This document shows positions 2-10,763 of a DNA stretch of 24,000 bases, in pieces. Made by a program: the position numbers and the translations under genes. Under the pieces are notes generated by a model that was not told the DNA's origin, made no database searches, and saw only the letters and a list, made by a program, of their open reading frames with translations. Source of the stretch: Anaerolineae bacterium (lineage in GTDB: Bacteria > Chloroflexota > Anaerolineae > JAAYZQ01); contig DAOUGI010000022.1 of the NCBI GenBank assembly GCA_034429215.1, forward strand, positions 7,132 through 31,131, given 5' to 3'. Each line of letters starts with the position of its first letter. Position 1 is the first letter of the stretch.

Positions 2-2404
2 GAGCGAGTGGATACCCTTGATGCATTTGAAGCCGTCATTGACCGGCAGTGGGAAGTCATCGTTGCCGACTATGCCATGCCGCACTTTGGCGGGCTGGCT
101 GCCCTGAAACGGGTGCAAGGCATGGGCCTTGATGTGCCGTTCATCATCGTTTCCGGCACAATTGGAGAAGACAGCGCCGTAGCGGCCATGAAGGCCGGAG
201 CCCACGACTATGTCATGAAAGATAATCTGGCGCGCCTGGTTCCTACCGTGCAGCGCGAGCTGCGCGAGGCACAGTCGCGGCAGGCGCGTCGACGTGCAGA
301 GGAGCGGCTGCGCGAAAGCGAGGCTCGCTACCGGCAATCCGTAGAGAACTCGCCCAACCCCATCTTTTCGGTGAATAGAGAAGACACCGTCCAGATGTGG
401 AATCAGGCCTGCGAGCAGGTCTTTCAATACAAGGCAGAAGAGATCATTGGCAGGGCTTATCATCAACTCCTGTGGGACACACAAGAGCAGGCTGCGGTTG
501 ATGGCCTACTGGCCCAGGTCTGGCAAGGGCTGTCGGTAAATGAGCAGGAGATGCAGTATCGGTGCAGGGATGGAACACAGCGGTTCATGGTCACGCGCAT
601 CTACCCTGTCTGCGATCTAGAGGGGCAGGTGGAAGGATGCGTGTTTGCCAATACCGACATCACCAAGCGCAAGCGAGCTGAACGGTTGCTCCAGGCACTG
701 AACGTAGCATCCCTGGCGATGCAGAAAGCCACAACACCGCAAGAGGTACTCACTACAGCAGGGGAAGGGTTCAAAGAGCTGGGTTTCTCTTGCGCGATTT
801 TCTTCACCGACGAGAGGCAAAGCAGGCTATTTCCCGAGTATCTCAGTTACAACCCAAAAGCGGTCAAGCTCGCAGAAAAGTTGCTCGGTGTCAATGCTGA
901 AACCTTTTCCCTAGCTGTCGAAACAGCAGATGTGTGGAAAGAGTCGACATGGAAGGGAAAAACCGTCTTTGTGGATGGCGCTGAGGGGTCGCGGCAGGTA
1001 CTGCCCAAGCCCTTGAAAAAGTTTGCCGGCCAGCTCGCTCAGGTCTTGGGGATCCCCAGATCGGTAATCGCCCCCCTCATCTTGGAGGACAAGGCCATCG
1101 GATTGCTCTCTGTCCAATCAGACGATCTCACCAAAGACGACATGCCGGCCATCACTGCCTTCGCCCACCAGATGTCAGCTGCCTGGCGCAAGGCCTGCTT
1201 AATGGACGACCTGGAAACGAGCCTGGAGGAGCTGAAACGCACGCAAGCCCAGCTCTTGCAGGCACAAAAGATGGAAGCGATCGGACGGCTGGCCGGCGGG
1301 GTCGCTCACGACTTTAACAACATGCTGACCATCGTCCATCTCAGCACGCGGCTACTGAAGCGGCAATTGCACCCGGAAGATCCATTGCTGGAATATGTGC
1401 AGCAGATCGAAGAAGCCGGAGACCGGGCTACCGCGCTAACCAAACAGTTGCTCAGCTTTAGCCGCCGGGATGTCATCGAGCCCCATGTTGTCGATCTCAA
1501 CCAAGAGATCGGCAGATTGAGCCGGATGCTGCAGCGTGTCATCGGTGAAGACGTCGATCTGGTGACCATGCTGTCCGAGGATTTGTGGCCCGTCTATCTG
1601 GATCCGGCCCAGATCGATCAGGCGATCGTGAACTTGGCCATTAACGCCCGCGACGCCATGCCCAACGGAGGCCGCCTGACAATCGAGACAACCAACACAA
1701 TGCTCGATGGGACATCCGCTGTCCGCCAGGTAGGCCTACAACCAGGAGATTATGTACAGCTCACTGTGACAGATACAGGGGTGGGTATGGGCGACGAAGT
1801 CAAAGCCCACCTTTTTGAGCCATTCTTTACAACCAAGGAACGGGGCCAAGGCACCGGCTTGGGCTTGTCCACTGTGTTTGGCGTCATTAAACAGAGTGGC
1901 GGACACATCTGGATTGACAGCGAAGTGGGGCAAGGCACGACCGTCCAGATCTACTTGCCCCGCACTGACAAGGTCGAGTCCCCAGATTCGCTGCGCGCAA
2001 CGCCCGCCAGCGCACTCCGTGGCAGTGAAACAATCCTGGTGGTGGAGGACTATACTGGCGTTCGAGATCTGGCTACCCAGATCCTGACAACGCACGGCTA
2101 CCAGGTGCTTGCCGCCAAAAACGGCCCCGAAGCCCTACGGATCAGCCTGAGGCACGACCGTCCCATCCACCTGCTATTGACGGACATGGTCATGCCCGGA
2201 ATGAACGGCAAGGAGTTGGCTGAGCAGATTCAAGCCCAGCGACCCGGCATTCGGATCCTGTATATGTCGGGATACGACAATCGCCTGGTTGAAGCCCCTA
2301 CGGTCCTAGGCGCGGGCGTGGCTTTCTTGGCCAAGCCGCTCACCGTGGAGACCCTGACCGAGAAGGTGCGAGCAGTGCTGGACAGGCCCAGTGAGATAAT
2401 CTGA
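2..2404 (+). CDS. Hybrid sensor histidine kinase/response regulator (REC-PAS-GAF-like-HisKA-HATPase_c-REC); 5' end cut by window edge
   Basis: The frame is open to the window start, and the first residues (EVIVADYAMPHFGG...FIIVSG...AGAHDYVMK) are the middle of a receiver domain, so the GTG at 8 is not the true start. A coiled-coil plus PAS region follows (NPIFSVN...WNQACEQVF...RCRDGT). H-box GGVAHDFNNML. HATPase_c N/G boxes (NLAINARDAMPNGG, DTGVGM, GQGTGLGLS). C-terminal receiver (ILVVEDY...LLLTDMVMPGMNG...LAKP). Stop TGA at 2402-2404. Confidence 0.9.
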   Translation, partial: ERVDTLDAFEAVIDRQWEVIVADYAMPHFGGLAALKRVQGMGLDVPFIIVSGTIGEDSAVAAMKAGAHDYVMKDNLARLVPTVQRELREAQSRQARRRAEERLRESEARYRQSVENSPNPIFSVNREDTVQMWNQACEQVFQYKAEEIIGRAYHQLLWDTQEQAAVDGLLAQVWQGLSVNEQEMQYRCRDGTQRFMVTRIYPVCDLEGQVEGCVFANTDITKRKRAERLLQALNVASLAMQKATTPQEVLTTAGEGFKELGFSCAIFFTDERQSRLFPEYLSYNPKAVKLAEKLLGVNAETFSLAVETADVWKESTWKGKTVFVDGAEGSRQVLPKPLKKFAGQLAQVLGIPRSVIAPLILEDKAIGLLSVQSDDLTKDDMPAITAFAHQMSAAWRKACLMDDLETSLEELKRTQAQLLQAQKMEAIGRLAGGVAHDFNNMLTIVHLSTRLLKRQLHPEDPLLEYVQQIEEAGDRATALTKQLLSFSRRDVIEPHVVDLNQEIGRLSRMLQRVIGEDVDLVTMLSEDLWPVYLDPAQIDQAIVNLAINARDAMPNGGRLTIETTNTMLDGTSAVRQVGLQPGDYVQLTVTDTGVGMGDEVKAHLFEPFFTTKERGQGTGLGLSTVFGVIKQSGGHIWIDSEVGQGTTVQIYLPRTDKVESPDSLRATPASALRGSETILVVEDYTGVRDLATQILTTHGYQVLAAKNGPEALRISLRHDRPIHLLLTDMVMPGMNGKELAEQIQAQRPGIRILYMSGYDNRLVEAPTVLGAGVAFLAKPLTVETLTEKVRAVLDRPSEII

Positions 2405-2420
2405 GGATCCGGACTACGAT

Positions 2421-3347
2421 TCATGCCAAGGCGTCTCGCAACGCCCCTTCAAGCTCGGGAAAATGGAACTGGAACCCCATGTCAAGAAGGTGGCGCGGCA
2501 CACCCCGCTGCCCGGTAAGCAACAGATCGGCCACTTCCCCAAACATTGCCTTCATCATCAAGCCCGGCACAGGCAGCCAGGCAGGCCTGCCCAGGACCCG
2601 CCCAAGGGCACGCGCGAATTGAGCATTGGTCACCGCCTGGGGTGCCACAAGGTTGAACAGCCCAGAGGCAGACTCGTTCTCGATCAGAAAACGGATCGCC
2701 CTGGCTTCATCCTTGAGGTGGATCCACGACATCCACTGCTTGCCGCTTCCGATAGGCCCGCCGGCGAACAGGCGAAACTGCAAGATCATCGGCCGCAGGG
2801 CGCCATGTGCCTTGTCGAGCACAACCCCGGTCCGCACAATGGCCCGCCGGACACCCATCGCCTCGACAGGCGCCGTGGAAGGCTCCCAGTCGTGCGCGGC
2901 AAAGCTGGCCAAAAAGTCTTGGCCTATCGGGCCATCCTCGGCAATTAGGTCATCGCCACGGGGGCCATACACCCCGACTCCCGATGCCTGTATCACAACG
3001 CGTGGCTTGCGGGTCACCTGCCTGACGGCGTCGACCACCGCCTGCCCCGCATTCAGCCGGCTTTCACGGATGATCCGTTTCCGCCCATCGGTCCATCGGC
3101 TGGGAAAAAGCCCTTCGCCCGAGATGTTCGCCCCGGCTAGGTTGACAATGGCGTCGGCGCCGTCGGCCAGCGCGGCCCACCCATCGCCGCTACGCCCGTT
3201 CCAGCGTTCAGCCCTCACCCCAGCAGGCAATCCTTTGACCTGCTCCGGTGCACGGCTCAAGACGATGACTTTATGGCCGTCCCTGGCTAGATCAGCAGAC
3301 AACGCTCCGCCGATGAGTCCGGTCCCCCCCGTGATAATGACGCGCAT
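2421..3347 (-). CDS. TIGR01777/YfcH-like atypical SDR (NAD-dependent epimerase/dehydratase fold with DUF1731-type C-terminus)
   Basis: N-terminal Rossmann motif MRVIITGGTGLIGGAL...GHKVIVLSR. C-terminal LLLTGQRGVPRHLLDMGFQFHFPELEGALRDAL is typical of the YfcH/DUF1731 tail. SD GGAGG lies 7 nt upstream of ATG 3347. Last gene of the heliorhodopsin operon. Confidence 0.8.
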   Translation of the reverse strand: MRVIITGGTGLIGGALSADLARDGHKVIVLSRAPEQVKGLPAGVRAERWNGRSGDGWAALADGADAIVNLAGANISGEGLFPSRWTDGRKRIIRESRLNAGQAVVDAVRQVTRKPRVVIQASGVGVYGPRGDDLIAEDGPIGQDFLASFAAHDWEPSTAPVEAMGVRRAIVRTGVVLDKAHGALRPMILQFRLFAGGPIGSGKQWMSWIHLKDEARAIRFLIENESASGLFNLVAPQAVTNAQFARALGRVLGRPAWLPVPGLMMKAMFGEVADLLLTGQRGVPRHLLDMGFQFHFPELEGALRDALA

Positions 3348-3394
3348 GTGATGACCTCCAGGTTCCTCTAGTCCAGGCTATCCACCTGGTCCGG

Positions 3395-4699
3395 CTATTG
3401 GCTGCCGGTGGCCTTTTGCAGCCAGGTGAGAATCAGGTCGCCGCGCCGGTCGAGCTCCCCCTCGGCAGCCACGCGGTAGGCGTGCAGGTAACGGGCCAGG
3501 GTGCCTTCCGGCACGCCCGCTCGGGCGAGCCTCTCCTCAGCATCAGCGATGTTGAAATCGAGAAAAATCACGTCCCCCAGGGCGAGCGCCGCCTCCAGGT
3601 GTGATGCAAACTCTTCGTTGGCGTGGGCCAGGTGCCACAAAGAAAGGCCGATCTCCCCGGCGGTCTGGCTCATCCTTGATTCAATCGATCCGCGCCGCTC
3701 GCGGAAATGCTCCAGGGCCGCGCGAGGCTCCACCGGGATCGGCTCGCCTTCTGGCGCACGGGGAGGGAATGGCATCAGCGAGTCCACCGCGTCGGCTGCC
3801 GTCGTCAGGCTTTCACCAAGGAAATGGCCGGAAATCCGGGACCGGATGGCCGGAAGCGAATGGAATATTCCTCCCCCATAGCCGATCGGCGTATGGTCCT
3901 GTAGTGCATGGGTCGTCTCGAGCAGGGTTGCCGCCGAGGGCAGCCGCATCGCGGTCAGGATTGACAGGCTTGGCCGGACGGCCGCGACGGTAGCTTCCAG
4001 TTGCTCCACCGGCACGTTCGCCCCGAGGTACACAACCGCCCATCCACGGCGGCGCAGCAGGAAGGTCAACAGCAACAGGCCAAAGACATGGTACTCCTGC
4101 GGTGGGCAGGCAGCTAGGATCTGGCCCGGCCGCGTGGCAGGGGAGGCAGCCATGAGCAACGACTCTAGTTGGCGGATGGCCAGCTCTGACACAAAGTGCT
4201 CCTGCTGCACTGTAGCAGCGCCCTGCTGCCAAAGAACGCCCACCTCTGCCAGGGCCCACCGCAGCAATTCAAGGCAGACGGTTTCTGGAGGGTAGAGCGC
4301 AAATGCCTGCGCCGCCGCCTGCTCAGCCCACTGCTCGTCATAGGCCAAGCAGGCCGCGAGCCATTCGTGCCGCAGCTCGTCCAGCGTGCCACCCACGAGC
4401 CCTAGCTTGACCACCGGAGTGGCTGGCAGCGCAAACGGCAGCGCATCGCTTCCGCCGGCCTCGATCCGGCGCCACAGGTCGACGGCCCGGCTGATGCTCA
4501 GTCCTTCTCGCAGGCGAGCCACCAGCCAGTTCAGCGCCTCAATGTCGTGCTGGGTGTAGAGGCGATGCCCGCCGCCGCTCCGGGTGGGAGACGGCACCCC
4601 ATAGCGACGCTCCCAAGCACGCAGAGCATCGGCCTTTAGGCCTGTCTGCTTCAGGACGGCCTTTAGGTTGAACAGGGGTCCTTCACTCTCAGCACTCAT
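3395..4699 (-). CDS. CarH/LitR-type light-responsive transcriptional regulator (MerR HTH + B12-binding module) with an extra C-terminal domain of about 130 aa
   Basis: MerR HTH: FNLKAVLKQTGLKADALRAWERRYGVPSPTRSGGGHRLYTQHDIEALNWL. Four-helix-bundle signature W-x9-EH (LWQQGAATVQQEHF). Lower-axial-ligand motif ExHxxG (PPQEYHVFGLLL), then SxL (SILT) and GGG of the Rossmann B12-binding fold. It continues about 130 aa beyond where CarH normally ends. AGGA lies upstream of ATG 4699, 13 nt after the DUF1295 stop. Confidence 0.8.
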   Translation of the reverse strand: MSAESEGPLFNLKAVLKQTGLKADALRAWERRYGVPSPTRSGGGHRLYTQHDIEALNWLVARLREGLSISRAVDLWRRIEAGGSDALPFALPATPVVKLGLVGGTLDELRHEWLAACLAYDEQWAEQAAAQAFALYPPETVCLELLRWALAEVGVLWQQGAATVQQEHFVSELAIRQLESLLMAASPATRPGQILAACPPQEYHVFGLLLLTFLLRRRGWAVVYLGANVPVEQLEATVAAVRPSLSILTAMRLPSAATLLETTHALQDHTPIGYGGGIFHSLPAIRSRISGHFLGESLTTAADAVDSLMPFPPRAPEGEPIPVEPRAALEHFRERRGSIESRMSQTAGEIGLSLWHLAHANEEFASHLEAALALGDVIFLDFNIADAEERLARAGVPEGTLARYLHAYRVAAEGELDRRGDLILTWLQKATGSQ

Positions 4700-4712
4700 T
4701 TTTCCTGCACAC

Positions 4713-5501
4713 TCAGCGCCGTTTCTTGGGGAACCAGGGCAAAAAAGCGCTTGTACTCTCGATATACTCGCGGTAGCCTGGCTTGGTCGTCGTCAAGGTT
4801 TTTTCCAACAAAGCCACTCCCGAAACCCGGAGCAGCATGAGCGTCATCAGGATTGGGCTCCAGATCGTCCAGAACCCACCCGCCGCCGCGGCGATGAGAT
4901 AATATCCCCACCACTGGGCCGCGTCGCCAAAGTAGTTTGGATGGCGGCTGTAGCGCCATACGCCGCTGTCCAGCACCTTTCCCTTGTTCGCCGGATTGGC
5001 CTTGAACCGGGTGAGCTGCAAATCTCCCACAGACTCAAAAAAGAACCCAATGGCCCACACCACAGCGCCCAGCAGGTCCACCACGGTCAGGCGGTCGGGT
5101 GTCGGGCTGATCTGAGCGGCCAGAAGCGGCGCCGAGATGATCCACAACAACACGCCCTGCAGCATAAAGACGCGAAAGAAGCTCTGCCACCACCAGCGGG
5201 TCCCGAACTCCTCTCGCCACTTGCGATAGCGAAAGTCTTCTCCCGCGCCCCAATTGCGGCGCAAAAGGTGAATCGACAGGCGCAGCCCCCAGATTGTGAC
5301 CAAAATGGCGATCAGCCACTTGCGCGCCGGGAACCCGTCGGGCGTCAGGGCAAAATAGAGCCAGTTGGCAATGACAAAACCGGTCCCCCAATAGGGATCG
5401 ACAATGCTCGAGTTGCGCAAAACCAGGCTGAGGCCCCACAACAGAGCCATGAGCCCCAACGTCACGCCCAGGCCGATGAGATACGCTTCCAGAAATGTCA
5501 T
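4713..5501 (-). CDS. DUF1295 family polytopic membrane protein (steroid 5-alpha-reductase / ICMT-like superfamily)
   Basis: Multi-TM hydrophobic profile. Hallmark C-terminal motif WRYSRHPNYFGDAAQWWGYYLIA. SD GGAGGT lies 6 nt upstream of ATG 5501. Confidence 0.8.
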   Translation of the reverse strand: MTFLEAYLIGLGVTLGLMALLWGLSLVLRNSSIVDPYWGTGFVIANWLYFALTPDGFPARKWLIAILVTIWGLRLSIHLLRRNWGAGEDFRYRKWREEFGTRWWWQSFFRVFMLQGVLLWIISAPLLAAQISPTPDRLTVVDLLGAVVWAIGFFFESVGDLQLTRFKANPANKGKVLDSGVWRYSRHPNYFGDAAQWWGYYLIAAAAGGFWTIWSPILMTLMLLRVSGVALLEKTLTTTKPGYREYIESTSAFLPWFPKKRR

Positions 5502-5521
5502 CTCTTTACCTCCATCAGGTG

Positions 5522-6364
5522 CTAGCTTTTCGCTTGTATGGCCACAAAACCCGCTGCCCTGGGGCCGATGTGGGTGCCGATAACCGGTGTCACTTCGGCA
5601 ACCATCGGCTCTTCGGCATCAGGAAACAGATGCAAGGCCTTCTGATGGAGAAACTCTGCCTTGTCAGGCGCATGGGTGTGAACCAGGGTCAGCTTTTCAA
5701 AAGGCGCCAATTGGGTTACAAGCTCCATCAGCCGGGCAGAAGCGCCATTCCGCGTGCGCACACGCTCCATCTCAAACTCGCCGCGGTGCATCTTGAGCAA
5801 GGGTTTGATCTGAAGCACAGATCCCAGGCTGGATTGGAAACGGCTCAGACGGCCGCTGCGCCGCAGAAATTCCAGGGTGTCCAGGGCGGCGATGCAATGG
5901 GTGCGGGACGCCTGGTCCTCAATGGCTGCCATAATATCGCTCATGGGCTGACCCTCGGCCGCCGCCTTGGCCGCGGTGACGGCCAACAGGCCGGTGCCCA
6001 GGGTTAACTGGCCCGAGTCGAATACGGTAACCGGCACCCTCTTTACCTCTTCTGCCGCCAGGCGCGCCACGGCCATCATGGCGCTCAGGCCGCTGCCGAT
6101 GTGGATCGAGAGGATCTCGGTAGCCCCGGCCTGCGCAAGGTTCTCATAAACCTGAACAAACTGCCCAGGGCCCGGAACTGAAGTGGTGGGGTGCGCTTCG
6201 AAATGGGGCAAGCCCTCGTAAAACTCCTCATGCGACATCTCGACGCCGTCCAGATAGCTCTTCTTGCCAATGTTGATGTACAAAGGCACGACGGTTATGC
6301 CATACTCGGCCACCATATCCTCGGGCAAATCACAATTACTGTCAGTTACGATCTTGATGCCCAT
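5522..6364 (-). CDS. DegV family fatty-acid-binding protein (FakB-like)
   Basis: Canonical DegV N-terminus IKIVTDSNCDLPEDMVAEYGITVVPLYINIGKKSYLDGVEMSHEEFYEGL. Length 280 aa is typical. SD GAGGGAG lies upstream of ATG 6364. Confidence 0.85.
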   Translation of the reverse strand: MGIKIVTDSNCDLPEDMVAEYGITVVPLYINIGKKSYLDGVEMSHEEFYEGLPHFEAHPTTSVPGPGQFVQVYENLAQAGATEILSIHIGSGLSAMMAVARLAAEEVKRVPVTVFDSGQLTLGTGLLAVTAAKAAAEGQPMSDIMAAIEDQASRTHCIAALDTLEFLRRSGRLSRFQSSLGSVLQIKPLLKMHRGEFEMERVRTRNGASARLMELVTQLAPFEKLTLVHTHAPDKAEFLHQKALHLFPDAEEPMVAEVTPVIGTHIGPRAAGFVAIQAKS

Positions 6365-6393
6365 TCCCTTACTCCCTCTTGACTAATAAGGAT

Positions 6394-6858
6394 CTACAAT
6401 CGGTAGTCGGCCGGGGTTCCCCAACGCTCTGTCTTGTGGTAACGACGGTTGGTCGATTGAAAATGGATCCAAATTGGCACCCGATCCAGCTCCGGCCTGG
6501 CCTCAAATAGGCCTCTGTCGCCCATACGAAGCGCCTCGATCGCCAGTGGAAGCTCGTGCCGGAAAATCCTGTCACGCATGCCAGCAGCGCCAAAAGCCAG
6601 CCCTCCGCTGACGTGGCAAAAGATGTGCAGCGCCGGTCCATCCTCGCCCTCCTGCCACTCAGCCAGCACCTCATCGCGCATCAAACGGGTGTACCAGCCC
6701 GAGATCTGTTCGCGATCCACTTCGGGCGCAATGGTCAAGAACAGCTCGCCCGTTGTGTCAGAGTGGGTTAGGGTGTAGCGCCTGGGGTTAAGCGGGCCAT
6801 CAGTTGTGGTACCCACCGCGAACTGGACGTGCAGCTTTTCCGGACTGAGACGACTCAT
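6394..6858 (-). CDS. Staygreen (SGR) family protein, bacterial homolog of chlorophyll Mg-dechelatase
   Basis: Colinear by eye with the plant SGR core. This ORF has PRRYTLTHSDTTGELFLTI, GWYTRLMRDEVLAEW, LHIFCHVSGG, IFRHELPLAIEAL, VPIWIHFQS and ERWGTP. Plant SGR has PRTYTLTHSDITSKLTLAI, GWYNRLQRDEVVAEW, LHVHCHISGG, IFCKELPVVLKAF and VWVYFHS. The THSD and RDE acidic/His motifs are intact. SD GGGAGAAG lies upstream of ATG 6858. Confidence 0.85.
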   Translation of the reverse strand: MSRLSPEKLHVQFAVGTTTDGPLNPRRYTLTHSDTTGELFLTIAPEVDREQISGWYTRLMRDEVLAEWQEGEDGPALHIFCHVSGGLAFGAAGMRDRIFRHELPLAIEALRMGDRGLFEARPELDRVPIWIHFQSTNRRYHKTERWGTPADYRL

Positions 6859-6869
6859 AGCTTCTCCCA

Positions 6870-6902
6870 GCCCCCACGCCGGGTGTCGTCCGGCGTGGGG
6901 GC
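6870..6902 (-). promoter_or_regulatory. Intercistronic GC-rich stem-loop between heliorhodopsin and SGR genes (13-bp perfect stem, 7-nt loop, no U-tract)
   Basis: 6870-6882 (GCCCCCACGCCGG) is the exact reverse complement of 6890-6902 (CCGGCGTGGGGGC). The loop is GTGTCGT. On the mRNA strand the stem ends 1 nt before the SGR SD (GGGAGAAG) and starts 25 nt after the heliorhodopsin stop. Confidence 0.7.
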
Positions 6903-6927
6903 GCTTGGTGATCGCAGCGATAGGGGC

Positions 6928-7752
6928 CTAGACGGGAGCCAGCGTCCCGGCAAAGATCATCCAGGCCAGTGCAGTCTTGGCCGCCAGGCTGAGGATGATG
7001 TACACCCGCTCGCCGAACAGGTAATCTTTCCAGCGGCCGACCTTCTTGTATTGCAGGAACATGTTCACGGCAAAGATATTAAAGAATACAAAGATCGTGG
7101 GGATGATGGCATACACAAAGGCGGGCGGCTTGGCATCCCCAGACGACAATGCGCTCAGGAAGTACATCACAATCACCACCCACGGAATAATCCCCGCGAT
7201 ACAGCCATAGATGAACGAGGTCCAGTCGGTCTTTTTCGTCGTCTGGTTGTGCAGCTCCATGATCATGCCAAACAGGTTCATCATGGCGTTAATGCCAAAC
7301 ATCACGATCATAGTGCCCAGGTCCCACACGCCGACCAGCATGCCGATCAACACGATCATCAGCGAAGAGCTGAGGGCATACTCGTAAAAGCGCGCCGGGT
7401 TCATGCCCACCTTGAGATGCTTTACGTACCACTTGTAGCCAAAGGTGGCCAGGGACAAGTGGGCTACTGCAGAGATCAACAGAAACAAGGCAACCGCCGG
7501 GCCGAATCGCAGGTCAAAGGCCAGCTTTGGATCCGGCACTAGGGCACGAGCGGCCATGTCGAACTTTAAAAAGTTGGTATAGATCGGATAGGTCGTGTCA
7601 TTGCTGAGCACGATCATCAGGATGCCCTGGATCAGGTGCAGGAACCCCATCACCAGGTTAAAGCGGCGCAGACCTTGGTAGGTCTTTTCGGGTACGTCCG
7701 GCGTCTTGGTCATGACAACAGATTTGGGCGCGGCTTTGGATTTCGCAGGCAT
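6928..7752 (-). CDS. Heliorhodopsin (retinal-binding 7-TM photoreceptor, inverted topology)
   Basis: Alignable by eye along its full length to heliorhodopsin 48C12. Conserved blocks: GFLHLIQ (TM1 His), ALFLLISAVAHLS (TM2 His), RFYEYALSSSLMIVLIG (counterion Glu), GCIAGIIPW, AFVYAIIPTIFVFFNIFA, QYKKVGRWKDYLFGERVYIILSLAAKTALAWMIFAGTL (Schiff-base Lys in SLAAK). Lys-rich N-terminus. I prefer ATG 7752 (SD AAGGAGA 8 nt upstream) over the TTG at 7812 given in the ORF track. Confidence 0.92.
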   Translation of the reverse strand: MPAKSKAAPKSVVMTKTPDVPEKTYQGLRRFNLVMGFLHLIQGILMIVLSNDTTYPIYTNFLKFDMAARALVPDPKLAFDLRFGPAVALFLLISAVAHLSLATFGYKWYVKHLKVGMNPARFYEYALSSSLMIVLIGMLVGVWDLGTMIVMFGINAMMNLFGMIMELHNQTTKKTDWTSFIYGCIAGIIPWVVIVMYFLSALSSGDAKPPAFVYAIIPTIFVFFNIFAVNMFLQYKKVGRWKDYLFGERVYIILSLAAKTALAWMIFAGTLAPV

Positions 7753-7830
7753 GATACTTTTCTCCTTGTCTTGTAGTTGGATTAGAATGTCCTTATGGTG
7801 CGGGCGCTGCAATTCCCACTACCGATAGAG

Positions 7831-7859
7831 ATTTTACCACAAGCCTGACGTTTTGTCAA
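7831..7859 (-). promoter_or_regulatory. Predicted sigma-70-type promoter of the heliorhodopsin operon
   Basis: Read on the minus strand: TTGACA (7859-7854), a 17-nt spacer, then TAAAAT (7836-7831) preceded directly by TGG (extended -10 TGn). It lies in the only AT-rich stretch of this region. The predicted leader to ATG 7752 is about 70 nt. Confidence 0.65.
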
Positions 7860-7874
7860 TATATTGTCGATATT
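7853..7874 (-). promoter_or_regulatory. Two tandem 11-bp direct repeats, candidate CarH-type operator overlapping the -35 box
   Basis: On the minus strand: AATATCGACAA (7874-7864) then TATATTGACAA (7863-7853). They match at 8 of 11 positions with exact 11-bp phasing. Both fit all five specified positions of nAnnTnnACAn. The flanking 11-mers (AACGCGTAAGA upstream, AACGTCAGGCT downstream) fit only 2 of 5 positions. Confidence 0.55.
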
Positions 7875-7939
7875 TCTTACGCGTTTCTAATAGGGGAGGT
7901 GGGCGCTATTATCTACCTGATGCCCGTGAGGCAATTGCA

Positions 7940-9952
7940 TTATCTCAATGACATGGTTGCGCCGCTCCTGTCCCCATGGTAGATGAATCCTAGCATGCGG
8001 CTGATCTTGGTCGGGTCAATACCTGCGTCGACCAGGGAGGCAGTCTGCCATTCGTCGTCGGTTTGCTCGGGGATCTTGTCATACGGGGCCAGCGTGGGTA
8101 CCGGCGTTCGGGCGGGTTGGGTGGCTGGTACTGTCACTGCTAGGCCTGTTGCAGGTACTGGTCCGAAAGCAGGCCTACACATGGGCGTGATCTTATCCAG
8201 CTCCCGCACCGCTGCATCCCAGGTGAACTCCTGGTTGTCGCTAAAGTAGTAATATGCGGTCCCGTTGGGCATGATGGCAACCACATTGCCGCTGATCCCA
8301 AGCATCTGCGGCACCCAGAACTCGCAGTCAAAGCCGTCGGCTTGGCTATAGCGGTTAGCCCAGAAGGCGTTATTGTACACCCGCCGGCTGTCTATCATTA
8401 CGCCACGGTCATCGGGTGATCGCTGTAGGGCGGCGGCAAGCAGGCCAGGGTGCAACACCTGGACGCCATCGATCTGCCCCTGCCAACTGTTCAGCAGGGT
8501 GGCAATCTTGGCGATGTCATCTGGAATCCACCACAAGCCATAGCCGCCCTCGGCCTGCCCCTGCCAGTCGTTGTCGGCGGTGCGCATGGTGGTGTATGCC
8601 CCTGGGCCGAGCCCGAGCGGCCGGTAGACCTCATCTACCACGAACTGGAAGATATCTGCCCCAGGACCTTCTTGGCTCTGCAGATAATTATGTAAGGCCC
8701 TGGTGAGGATGAATGTGTCACCGGTATGATACACCCAGTGCGTGCCCGGCTCAGCGGCCTGAGGCCAATCAAATGCCGCGGCGATCCGCGCGGCGTAGGG
8801 CTGGGCGCCAAAGAACTCGCCCATGTTAAAGCCGTCCTCGTCGGCCATGTAGCCCGCCGAGCCATAGTTCCCGGCAGACATGTCTATGGTGTGGTTGAAT
8901 GTCACCCGTTCCCAGTCCCCTGGGCTGGCGGCATATTCCGGGACATAGTCCTTGATCAGCAGGCCGGCCACCTCGGGCCCATATTTCTGCGCCAGGCGCA
9001 TCAGGGCCACGCTGACAAACGCCGATTTGGCAGTGGAGAAAGAGGCAGCGCGCATCGACTCGCAGTAGGGATAGATCCCAAAGCGGGTCTGGCAGCCGCC
9101 CAGGTAGTTGACCCCGTTCGCCACGACGCCATACCAGGTCATGTGCTCCGGACTAACGCCGCGCCCAAAGCCCGTGATGTCAACCCCGAGATAATCCTCG
9201 GCCAGCGCCTGGATCGGTTTGGTCGGCATGCGGGCGGCCAGCTCGGCCGCAAACTCGGTCCGGATGCGCTCGGCATCCTGAACAGGTCCTGGATAGTACG
9301 CAGCGTCCAGCAATCCCCACAGATCAGCCCGCGTGTAGGAAGTGACTTCTTGGGTAACCTGGTACCAGACCTTCGAGACGCTTCTTTCATCGAACAGGAA
9401 GGTCATCGTGCCATTAAAGCAGGAATTGCCGCCCTTGACCACCAGTGCAAAGGGCAAAGATGCCCGCGAGAAACCGCTATCGCCGGCCTCCTGCCACACC
9501 CGCCCCGGCTCAAGGATAATGTTCCACTCAGGATGGCCGGTGACGATCGATCCGCGCTGCACGGGGAGCAGATATCCATCGCTCTGCACGAATTCAAAAT
9601 CAAACTCTGGCAGGTAGGCGTATTCCGGCCCCAGCTCGCCCTGCAGCACCTGAATCTGGCCGCCTTCCCTCTCCCCGGCCAGCTCCAGGCGGCCTTCAAA
9701 GATGTGTGCCGCCGGAGCGGCGCCGGAAGGCGGGGCAAGTGCGCTCTCGTCCACCGGCGACGTGGCCTTGAATCCGTTCGCCAGCGCATCGTAGGTCAGC
9801 AGCGAGCGCTCCACCTCCCCGCTTCCGGCAAGAGCGGTGGTAGGCATCGTCGCGGCCGGCGTGGCGGTCGCCGCTGGGCTGACAGCATTTGGGGCAGAAG
9901 TACATGCAGCCAGGAGTATAAGGCCCACCAGAAGCAGCCGCGCAGCCTTCAT
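7940..9952 (-). CDS. Lipoprotein with beta-lactamase-fold serine hydrolase domain
   Basis: From ATG 9952 (SD GGAGG 5 nt upstream): MKAARLLLVGLILLAAC, a signal peptide with lipobox LAAC, followed by an Ala/Thr/Pro linker. Candidate SxxK nucleophile motif (FSTAKSAF) sits in a region of about 350 aa with beta-lactamase/esterase-like character. Pro/Thr-rich linker near the C-terminus. The ORF-track start at 10006 would overlap the upstream gene. Confidence 0.6.
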   Translation of the reverse strand: MKAARLLLVGLILLAACTSAPNAVSPAATATPAATMPTTALAGSGEVERSLLTYDALANGFKATSPVDESALAPPSGAAPAAHIFEGRLELAGEREGGQIQVLQGELGPEYAYLPEFDFEFVQSDGYLLPVQRGSIVTGHPEWNIILEPGRVWQEAGDSGFSRASLPFALVVKGGNSCFNGTMTFLFDERSVSKVWYQVTQEVTSYTRADLWGLLDAAYYPGPVQDAERIRTEFAAELAARMPTKPIQALAEDYLGVDITGFGRGVSPEHMTWYGVVANGVNYLGGCQTRFGIYPYCESMRAASFSTAKSAFVSVALMRLAQKYGPEVAGLLIKDYVPEYAASPGDWERVTFNHTIDMSAGNYGSAGYMADEDGFNMGEFFGAQPYAARIAAAFDWPQAAEPGTHWVYHTGDTFILTRALHNYLQSQEGPGADIFQFVVDEVYRPLGLGPGAYTTMRTADNDWQGQAEGGYGLWWIPDDIAKIATLLNSWQGQIDGVQVLHPGLLAAALQRSPDDRGVMIDSRRVYNNAFWANRYSQADGFDCEFWVPQMLGISGNVVAIMPNGTAYYYFSDNQEFTWDAAVRELDKITPMCRPAFGPVPATGLAVTVPATQPARTPVPTLAPYDKIPEQTDDEWQTASLVDAGIDPTKISRMLGFIYHGDRSGATMSLR

Positions 9953-9965
9953 CCGAACCTCCAGG

Positions 9966-10763
9966 TCAATGAGTCCCGTACTTCTCCAGCCGCCAAAACG
10001 TGTCAAACCACGGCGGAGCTATCTGGGTGAAATGCGACCAGGAGCCCGGCTCCGGGTTTTCGGCGCGCTCCATCCATTCCCACAAGCCCAAAAAACAAAA
10101 CCCATTGCCGACCAGCGTGTTCATCACAGTGCTCAGGGTATGGCGGAACTCATGCGGCCCGGACAGCCTGACCGACGAACCATCGGGCTGGGCGACGTCC
10201 CAATGCGGATAGTAGCGGGTCAGGTCTTCACCGTCGATGTAGGGACGGTTGAGGGCGTACGCCTCCCCGTCCCAGGCCTCATCGTCCACGGCGTGGCTAA
10301 AGGGGTTGGCAAACTGCAAGAAATAGATCCCGCCCGACTTGAGCACACGCGCCACTTCCCGGAAAACGGGCTCCACCGATGGGCAAAAGTTCAGAGAGTA
10401 GACCTGCCAGATCACGTCAAAGCGGCCAGCGGCAAAGATCGACAGATCGCGCATGTCGCCCTGGTGTGTCGCTACCTTCAACCCGTGGTGCGCGGCCGCC
10501 TGCCGGTCGCGCTCTAGCTGTACGTCGGACAGGTCCAAAACCGTCACGTCCGCTCCCAGCAGTCCGAAAGCGACCGAGTCCTGCCCGCCGCCGCTGGCCA
10601 GGCACAGCACGCGCTTGCCGGACACGTTGGTCAGGACGCCGTGCCGGCCTATCTGCCGGCGCGCCTCTTCGGGGGTATACTCCAGCCAGGGCTGCGACCA
10701 TTCGACATTGGCCTGCGCCAGGGCGTTCCATCGCTCGCGGTTAGTCCTGTTGATTTCGTCCAT
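9966..10763 (-). CDS. Class I SAM-dependent methyltransferase
   Basis: Motif I VLCLASGGGQDSVAFGLLGADVTVLDLS. Post-I/II elements (FDVIWQVYSLNF, VLKSGGIYFLQF). Confidence 0.8.
   Translation of the reverse strand: MDEINRTNRERWNALAQANVEWSQPWLEYTPEEARRQIGRHGVLTNVSGKRVLCLASGGGQDSVAFGLLGADVTVLDLSDVQLERDRQAAAHHGLKVATHQGDMRDLSIFAAGRFDVIWQVYSLNFCPSVEPVFREVARVLKSGGIYFLQFANPFSHAVDDEAWDGEAYALNRPYIDGEDLTRYYPHWDVAQPDGSSVRLSGPHEFRHTLSTVMNTLVGNGFCFLGLWEWMERAENPEPGSWSHFTQIAPPWFDTFWRLEKYGTH

Follow-up and report, generated by a model that had tools for sequence, protein, structure and literature searches.

CarH-type direct repeats at the promoter of a heliorhodopsin operon in Anaerolineae and their probable role in light control

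What controls a heliorhodopsin gene, and together with which partners it is expressed, is the question raised by a 24,000-nucleotide stretch of an Anaerolineae genome (contig DAOUGI010000022.1, positions 7,132 to 31,131; the whole stretch is referred to below as the window). Here a heliorhodopsin gene heads a six-gene operon on the minus strand, its promoter carries 11-bp direct repeats of the kind that make up operators of the regulator CarH, and the fifth gene of the operon encodes a MerR-family regulator with B12-binding domains. To our knowledge, what heliorhodopsins do has been an open matter ever since they were discovered, and the proposals that have been made rest on single neighbouring genes.

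All of the evidence considered here consists of sequence and predicted structure. From it we regard it as likely that the repeat-bearing element is the promoter-operator of the six genes, at which the operon's own MerR-B12 regulator would repress transcription in the dark and release it in the light, its own gene included. Given a conserved site of the CarH type and a repressor encoded in the operon, the genes are probably silent in darkness and expressed under light. Neither operators of the CarH type nor photoregulation by B12 is new as such. What appears to be new is the target, a heliorhodopsin operon; the host, a member of the Anaerolineae (Chloroflexota); the photocobilin-like tail of the regulator; and an operator variant that combines two canonical with two conserved non-canonical units.

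Direct repeats and promoter upstream of the heliorhodopsin gene

The CarH operator is built from 11-bp units of the pattern nAnnTnnACAn (also given as nnnnTnnACAn), arranged in tandem (PMC8156234, PMC9304148); there are three units in Thermus, one of them taking in the -35 hexamer, and four in Bacillus megaterium (PMC9304148, PMC8156234). Two perfect units of this pattern abut on the minus strand of the window, AATATCGACAA at 7874-7864 (designated u3) and TATATTGACAA at 7863-7853 (u4), each satisfying A2, T5, A8, C9 and A10. The second contains the -35 hexamer, TTGACA, at 7859-7854, from which a 17-nt spacer (7853-7837) leads to the -10 hexamer TAAAAT (7836-7831); a TG at 7839-7838, followed by G, makes this an extended -10 element (7839-7831). 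A sequence-only reading of the window had picked out these repeats and this promoter, and re-reading of the minus strand confirmed both, down to the coordinates of the repeats, the placing of TTGACA in the second of them, the length of the spacer, the TG and the TAAAAT. Its caveat that the flanking 11-mers match the consensus only at A2 and one other position was equally accurate: upstream, the pseudo-repeat AACGCGTAAGA (7885-7875, u2) agrees at A2 and A8 alone, and downstream, within the spacer, the degenerate 11-mer AACGTCAGGCT (7852-7842) agrees at A2 and T5 alone. One unit further upstream, CCCCTATTAGA (7896-7886, u1) is non-canonical and stands in 11-bp phase with the canonical repeats. 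On the four specified positions of TnnACA, u1 and u2 score 0-1 in the window.

As a promoter, the element scores 11/12 with TG, the sole such match in a promoter scan of positions 2000-10500 (8.5 kb). The scan found no other promoter-like site of at least 9/12 on the minus strand inside the operon; the other minus-strand match, at 8280 (9/12), lies upstream, within the preceding gene. The predicted transcription start, placed by promoter geometry only, falls on purines 5-8 nt past the -10 (7823-7826, minus strand). The promoter at 7896-7831 is of a near-consensus, sigma-70 type that should fire strongly unaided, and with its optimal 17-nt spacer it would need a repressor, not an activator.

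The 20-nt tandem pattern ANNTNNACANNANNTNNACA occurs once on the two strands of the window, where 0.02 occurrences are expected, and was matched in 2 of 100 shuffles. Single ANNTNNACA units are frequent (32 in the window against 17.7 expected), so that only the phased tandem embedded in a promoter is informative. This abundance, and a consensus that specifies only 5 bases in 11, lend some weight to the idea that the repeats are promoter context and nothing else, an A/T-rich UP-like element joined to a -35 hexamer, with a coincidental likeness to a CarH site and no repressor; one of the repeats simply is the -35 hexamer, and the region upstream of it is A/T-rich. The rarity of the phased tandem speaks against this idea, as do the related promoters described below.

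Conservation and recurrence at related promoters

We collected 80 heliorhodopsin loci from species-representative genomes, mostly annotated as Anaerolineae or other Chloroflexota, and a further 80 from metagenomes (individual loci are cited by L numbers). The closest heliorhodopsin among 185,579 species representatives, that of L002, is 87% identical to the protein of the window. Thirteen non-redundant promoters, mostly those of the closest heliorhodopsin relatives together with those of L011 and L067 (70-76% heliorhodopsin identity), gave the consensus nnnnCnTTAGA nAnnnnTAAnA AATnTGnACAA TATnTTGACAA for u1 to u4, followed by an unconserved 11-mer and by nnTGGTAnAnT, in which TGGTAnAnT corresponds to the extended -10. 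Both u3 and u4 are retained in the thirteen promoters and form their best conserved part outside the hexamers. Substitutions in these two units fall mostly at positions 4, 6 and 7, which are free in the CarH consensus (TCGACAA, TGGACAA, TGTACAA, TATACAA), the exception at a specified position being a C9-to-T change in 3 sequences. The sequence-only reading had named the absence of the repeats from orthologous promoters as a finding that would count against it, and the opposite was found.

The upstream units u1 (CnTTAGA) and u2 (TAAnA) are also conserved in the 13 orthologs, in exact 11-bp register, which brings the number of phased units, canonical or pseudo-repeat, to at least three; the TTAGA of u1 is present in L163 as well. 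In the orthologs u2 often has T5 and A8, as in GATCTGTAAAA or AACGTGTAAGA, and so has the look of a decayed TnnACA unit, scoring 2-3 of 4 on TnnACA in many of them. Information content falls to background upstream of u1 and within the spacer. Because u1 and u2 are conserved in register and the conservation ends upstream of them, the phylogenetic footprint, as read from this alignment, is one of four 11-bp units (7896-7853, ~44 bp) plus the -10, not of two. The earlier description of the element therefore stands for its two good repeats and was too short in its extent.

The worry that only two repeats are good is answered by published operators in which one or two canonical repeats with flanking pseudo-repeats are bound in the dark with adenosylcobalamin (AdoCbl) (PMC9304148). 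Myxobacterial and Bacillus megaterium CarH operators comprise four or five 11-bp units, canonical repeats together with pseudo-repeats, and overlap the -35 or the -10 (PMC9304148). The array described here, for which binding is predicted, has a similar mixture of units; it differs from those operators in that pseudo-repeats of the form CnTTAGA and TAAnA are undescribed and in that the regulator has another architecture. From the Thermus operator it differs in having two canonical and two conserved non-canonical units where Thermus has three canonical ones.

The units u1 and u2 could be pseudo-repeats of the same regulator or a separate direct-repeat site. In the latter case TTAGA-N6-TAAGA would be the direct repeat of an OmpR-type response regulator acting as activator: the u1/u2 consensus is distinct from that of u3/u4, the two units lie at about -57 to -80, where activators typically bind, and a hybrid histidine kinase gene adjoins the operon. 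Yet u2 grades into a canonical unit in the orthologs (TGTAAAA versus TGTACAA) and keeps an exact 11-bp register with u3 and u4, and a promoter with an 11/12 score, a 17-nt spacer and TG needs no activator site. A second possibility of this kind is a symmetric operator for a dimeric factor, suggested by CAATATATTG (7866-7857), a perfect 10-bp palindrome in the window, L020 and L043 that reaches 14 bp as GTCAATATATTGAC in L014 and L016. Such a palindrome, however, arises automatically at the junction of two direct repeats, from the CAA of the first and the TTG of the second; loci such as L017 and L107 retain the repeats without the palindrome, whose centre varies in L067, L011 and L001. We rejected the palindrome as the primary reading for these reasons, and consider a symmetric operator, an OmpR-type activator site, or the two in combination, quite unlikely.

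A light-dependent activator that distorts the promoter in the classical MerR manner could also be considered, as the regulator belongs to the MerR family. Some LitR-type proteins take part in positive light control, via a sigma factor. Classical MerR activation, though, works on a suboptimal spacer of 19-20 bp that encloses a dyad site. The spacer of the present promoter measures 17 nt and lacks conservation in the close clade, its hexamers come near the consensus, and the conserved units are direct repeats that take in the -35 and the sequence upstream of it, an arrangement known from CarH repression. We give this alternative almost no credence.

Similar arrays recur at other Anaerolineae loci. 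When Anaerolineae heliorhodopsin loci totalling 1.18 Mb were scanned for three tandem TnnACA units with a threshold of at least 11 of 12 positions, 18 sites were obtained, where Markov-shuffled controls gave 1-3; inclusion of the metagenome loci (1.73 Mb in all) brought the count of non-redundant three-unit sites to 36. About 14 of the 18 share one layout, in which a repeat is followed by a repeat with TTGACA, a third repeat and a TATAAT-like -10. The stereotyped form is that of L017, AATGTGTACAA AACCTTGACAA AATGTGCACAT cgtggTACAAT, where the third repeat lies within the spacer and the -10 follows. In other clades a third canonical repeat thus stands at the very place of the spacer 11-mer that is degenerate in the window, T..ACA being found there in L009, L010, L017, L023, L028, L030, L065 and L107. 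The positions on which the scan did not select are A-rich, as in the published consensus (A in 55% at position 2 and in 71% at position 11). Almost all of the three-unit sites precede operons in which heliorhodopsin is the first, second or third gene, and the remaining ones either precede a carH-like gene (L023) or stand divergent to such a gene (L053, L069).

When the sites of the form TTGACA-N16-18-TAnnnT were pooled from all loci, 35 of 135 non-redundant ones were flanked on one side, at a distance of exactly 11 bp, by a perfect TnnACA, where chance, by a hand estimate, would give roughly 1-4; the count is given in pooled form, the background of the foreground/background comparison having held true operators more than 300 bp upstream of heliorhodopsin. 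This excess, the third TnnACA unit inside the spacer of other clades, where no UP element acts, and a conservation among orthologs that tracks the specified positions, the G/C-containing ACAA included, and not general A/T richness, make it highly improbable that the repeats are promoter context alone. The CarH-operator reading of the repeats at 7874-7853 is supported by the same comparisons.

Four more loci (L163, L164, L165 and L166) were found via the regulator, not via heliorhodopsin. The four-unit array is retained in L163, upstream of its heliorhodopsin operon. In L164 and L166, which are without heliorhodopsin, units resembling the direct repeats (3 of 4 positions) flank the -35 on both sides.

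The same operator type also precedes other genes (L005 at 314; L010 at 7388 and 13652; L069 at 347), which are candidates for a wider light regulon: an M50 peptidase with CBS domains, an MFS transporter, a DUF4397 protein, an alpha/beta hydrolase and SDRs. At 13652 in L010 there are four units in a row.

The regulator and the proposed switch

The fifth gene of the operon (3395-4699, minus strand) encodes a protein of 434 residues, with a MerR helix-turn-helix, a B12-binding four-helix bundle and Rossmann domain, and a C-terminal photoglobin-like domain. Its N-terminal winged-helix domain matches PF13411 (E 1.6e-11) and also the DNA-binding domain of CarA (2JML, E 1.4e-11). Compared with Thermus thermophilus CarH (LitR; 5C8D, 5C8E, 5C8F), the regulator scores an E value of 1e-27; its DNA-binding domain aligns to residues 26-91, and 25 of 38 residues of the helix-turn-helix and wing are identical. 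The AdoCbl motifs are intact, as W157-x9-E167-H168 (Wx9EH) and E202-Y-H204-V-F-G207 (ExHxxG), and both are invariant in 42 homologues of 52-92% identity. The two systems are further alike in their tandem nAnnTnnACAn operators with one unit on the -35 and in the location of the regulator gene within the regulated locus, and unlike in that the target here is a heliorhodopsin operon, not carotenoid genes, and the host one of the Anaerolineae.

CarH proteins of the two-module architecture have about 290-330 residues and end after the Rossmann domain, whereas the regulator continues for ~130 residues. This part (residues ~323-434, encoded at ~3395-3730 on the minus strand) includes an extra helical domain at 323-430 that is confidently modelled (AlphaFold monomer, pLDDT 87). 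Nearly all of the 120 best homologues listed have 430-450 residues, so that the tail is a family trait. In Foldseek comparisons the best fold matches of the model were the photocobilins 8J2X, 8J2W and 8J2Y, ahead of CarH itself (E 2e-16 to 1e-13, TM (target) 0.78-0.84, rmsd 3.1-4.6, 334-351 columns), the match spanning the B12 domains as well as the C-terminal helical domain, which corresponds to the globin-like domain of these proteins. A profile alignment of the regulator covers 8J2Y residues 41-311. The C-terminal 133 residues by themselves had no meaningful match in a sequence search against solved structures, and the photoglobin assignment accordingly comes from the whole-model fold match and the one long alignment to 8J2Y. 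From its motifs and modelled fold, the regulator is best described as a putative MerR-B12-photoglobin factor and not a plain CarH. That the operon encodes a CarH-like protein, as had been claimed, holds for the DNA-binding domain and the AdoCbl motifs; the description has to be amended for the extra C-terminal domain, which is photoglobin-like as in photocobilins.

Photocobilins join a CarH-type B12 module to a C-terminal globin-like domain that binds biliverdin, and they form head-to-tail dimers in the dark (PMC10979010). Biliverdin binding and sensitivity to red light, with residues such as Asp270 and Trp296 in SasPcob, are features of this module. The regulator resembles SasPcob (8J2W/8J2X) and AbPcob (8J2Y) in fold and AdoCbl motifs, and lacks a His beside the motif Trp. 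Unlike the characterised photocobilins, which are stand-alone proteins or fused to a diguanylate cyclase (PMC10979010), it has a DNA-binding domain. The MerR-B12-photoglobin architecture has been catalogued computationally and never studied (PMC8717448, PMC11796333). We propose, tentatively and with more doubt than confidence, that the regulator is the first DNA-binding photocobilin, which would carry AdoCbl and a bilin and bind CarH-type repeats as a dimer or a pair of dimers. We know of no DNA-binding photocobilin that has been characterised. Were the proposal true, binding as a dimer or dimer pair would explain the two canonical and two degenerate units, a heliorhodopsin-Staygreen-DegV-DUF1295-SDR(-photolyase) regulon would come under green-to-red light control, and the co-regulated set would define the pathway in which the heliorhodopsins of Anaerolineae act.

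The operator might also be real and yet be bound by a regulator encoded elsewhere, such as a short CarH/LitR paralogue. In that case the 434-residue protein would serve some other target or role, and autoregulation would fail while light control would hold. In L053, a canonical CarH of 315 residues (2606-3553, minus strand) with intact Wx9EH and ExH motifs is divergent from a three-repeat operator at 3733 (plus strand); in L069, a carH fragment (61-249, minus strand) is divergent from a three-repeat operator at 347 (plus strand), which precedes a gene for a CrtI-like amine oxidase. CrtI-like oxidases are classical CarH targets. From these arrangements we take it that Anaerolineae have both a short and a long form of CarH, with the motif common to the two. 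Against the short form as the binder, the DNA-binding domain of the long form is just as CarH-like, the operons headed by the long form or having it alone (L164, L166, and L023 at 2598) share the repeat context at their own promoters, and regulator and operator are found within one operon in many genomes, as is usual for a cognate pair. On balance we regard a binder encoded elsewhere as unlikely.

In the mechanism that we favour, repression by the operon's own regulator, the AdoCbl-loaded protein would bind in the dark in head-to-tail fashion, as a dimer of dimers or as two cooperating dimers, with one DNA-binding domain per 11-bp unit along one face of the helix, so that the -35 would be covered and RNA polymerase excluded. 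Light would photolyse the Co-C bond, the oligomer would dissociate, the operator would be vacated and the operon would be transcribed. The regulator gene, lying inside the operon, would be transcribed with it and would thereby close a negative autoregulatory loop. We infer the binding by this regulator, its dependence on B12 and light, the oligomeric state and the repression from the features of operator and protein given above. CarH proteins that are dimeric occupy two tandem repeats, and two such dimers cooperate (PMC9304148); a pair of cooperating dimers would suit the two-plus-two layout at least as well as would a tetramer of the Thermus type.

Several points weigh against this mechanism. 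The support for it is drawn from sequence comparison and structure prediction. Canonical units account for only 2 of the 4-5 in the window, and u1 and u2, with a consensus of their own (TTAGA/TAAGA), could belong to another protein. The regulator departs from characterised CarH proteins in its extra C-terminal domain and at the residue beside the motif Trp: H132 of Thermus CarH, next to W131, forms the bis-His light state (PMC8156234), and the regulator, with W157-Q158, is without it. This His is not universal to the CarH/LitR family, and photocobilins form no bis-His light state (PMC10979010). Since these closest structural relatives occur as dimers in the dark (PMC10979010), the tetramer model may not carry over, and since a canonical 315-residue CarH occurs in the same class beside the same motif, the binder could be a different paralogue. 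No such site was present in L165, one of the loci found via the regulator. The co-occurrence of carH-like genes with the operator did not reach significance (p = 0.18 over all loci and 0.06 over loci of at least 10 kb) in a test that involved truncated loci, a regulator possibly located elsewhere in the genome and a threshold that missed the two-repeat type, and we do not count this result against the mechanism.

If dark repression by the operon's own regulator is correct, heliorhodopsin would be light-switched via a B12 photoreceptor, in a concrete and testable regulatory unit. Its partners would be the Staygreen homologue, the DegV-family protein, the DUF1295 membrane enzyme and the SDR, joined by photolyase and peroxiredoxin in relatives, and a response to light stress or one of pigment and lipid handling would be indicated, not energy capture. 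The operator would be the first candidate DNA target for the MerR-B12-photoglobin architecture, and CarH-type photoregulation would be extended to Chloroflexota and to a non-carotenoid target. Additionally, dozens of natural operator variants (three canonical, two plus two, pseudo-repeats) would become available for the study of CarH-type recognition and for optogenetic design.

The operon and its neighbourhood

The operon comprises six genes on the minus strand, separated by intergenic gaps of 13-69 nt. The first is that of heliorhodopsin (6928-7752; Pfam PF18761, E 5.8e-102), with its ATG at 7752 behind AAGGAGA, followed by a Staygreen (SGR) homologue (6394-6858; PF12638, E 6e-49), a DegV-family protein (5522-6364; PF02645, E 4e-77), a DUF1295 membrane protein of steroid-reductase/methyltransferase-like type (4713-5501; PF06966, E 2e-75), the regulator and, as last gene, an SDR/epimerase with DUF1731 (2421-3347; assigned by Pfam). 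The set recurs in relatives, often with peroxiredoxin, photolyase and ABC-transporter genes in addition (L081, L082, L163), and the gene order is shuffled in other genomes; an SDR follows the regulator also in L010, L023, L067, L081, L163, L164 and L166. In close relatives the operon runs on beyond the SDR (L081 8284-10226, L082 11302-12803, L163 9416-10852) into a DNA photolyase gene, which is preceded by AhpC/peroxiredoxin in L081 and followed by ABC-transporter genes in L081 and L082, the latter being without the SDR. The presence of photolyase and AhpC genes in orthologous operons fits a light-induced unit. The operon of the window ends at the SDR, where it faces the convergent gene of a hybrid histidine kinase (PAS-GAF-HisKA-HATPase-REC; 8-2404, plus strand). 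Histidine kinases near heliorhodopsins have been described by Bulzu et al. (PMC8612252).

A MerR-family regulator is among the ten frequent heliorhodopsin neighbours of Cho et al. 2024 (PMC11109279). That study treats the neighbours as candidate interaction partners of heliorhodopsin; the MerR protein is not identified there as a B12 photoreceptor and no operator is defined (PMC11109279). The SDR, alpha/beta hydrolase, DUF2177 and photolyase neighbours of those neighbourhoods are found here too. Our literature search returned no paper with both 'heliorhodopsin' and 'CarH' in the searchable library.

The 5' untranslated region of the heliorhodopsin gene (7753-7822, minus strand) contains a conserved AATCCAA and the ribosome-binding site AAGGAG(A); the former lies ~25 nt before the latter and is kept in most orthologs. 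An Rfam scan of the window gave no family above threshold, and hence no cobalamin riboswitch. A conserved RNA structure in this region, suggested by a pairing spotted by eye, was rejected as unsupported, as RNAalifold returned 3 pairs, none of them with covariation.

Between the heliorhodopsin stop codon and the ribosome-binding site of the Staygreen gene is a GC hairpin of 13 perfect base pairs without a U-tract (6870-6902, minus strand), with -39 kcal/mol and a z of -4.1 for the 75-nt region. L081 and L082 keep it, their loop being altered and their stem showing a compensatory change, whereas it is absent in L001. The hairpin may serve to stabilise the transcript, or it may act as a partial attenuator by which heliorhodopsin is set higher than the genes downstream.

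The other genes of the window are unrelated to the operon and include, besides the hybrid histidine kinase, a beta-lactamase-like protein, several GNATs, DnaE and an ABC permease. A DUF2177 gene, known as a frequent heliorhodopsin neighbour, is divergent from the heliorhodopsin promoter in L081 (1761-2162), L082 (6364-6765) and L163 (2760-3167); at the corresponding position of the window stands the co-directional beta-lactamase-like gene (7940-10006).

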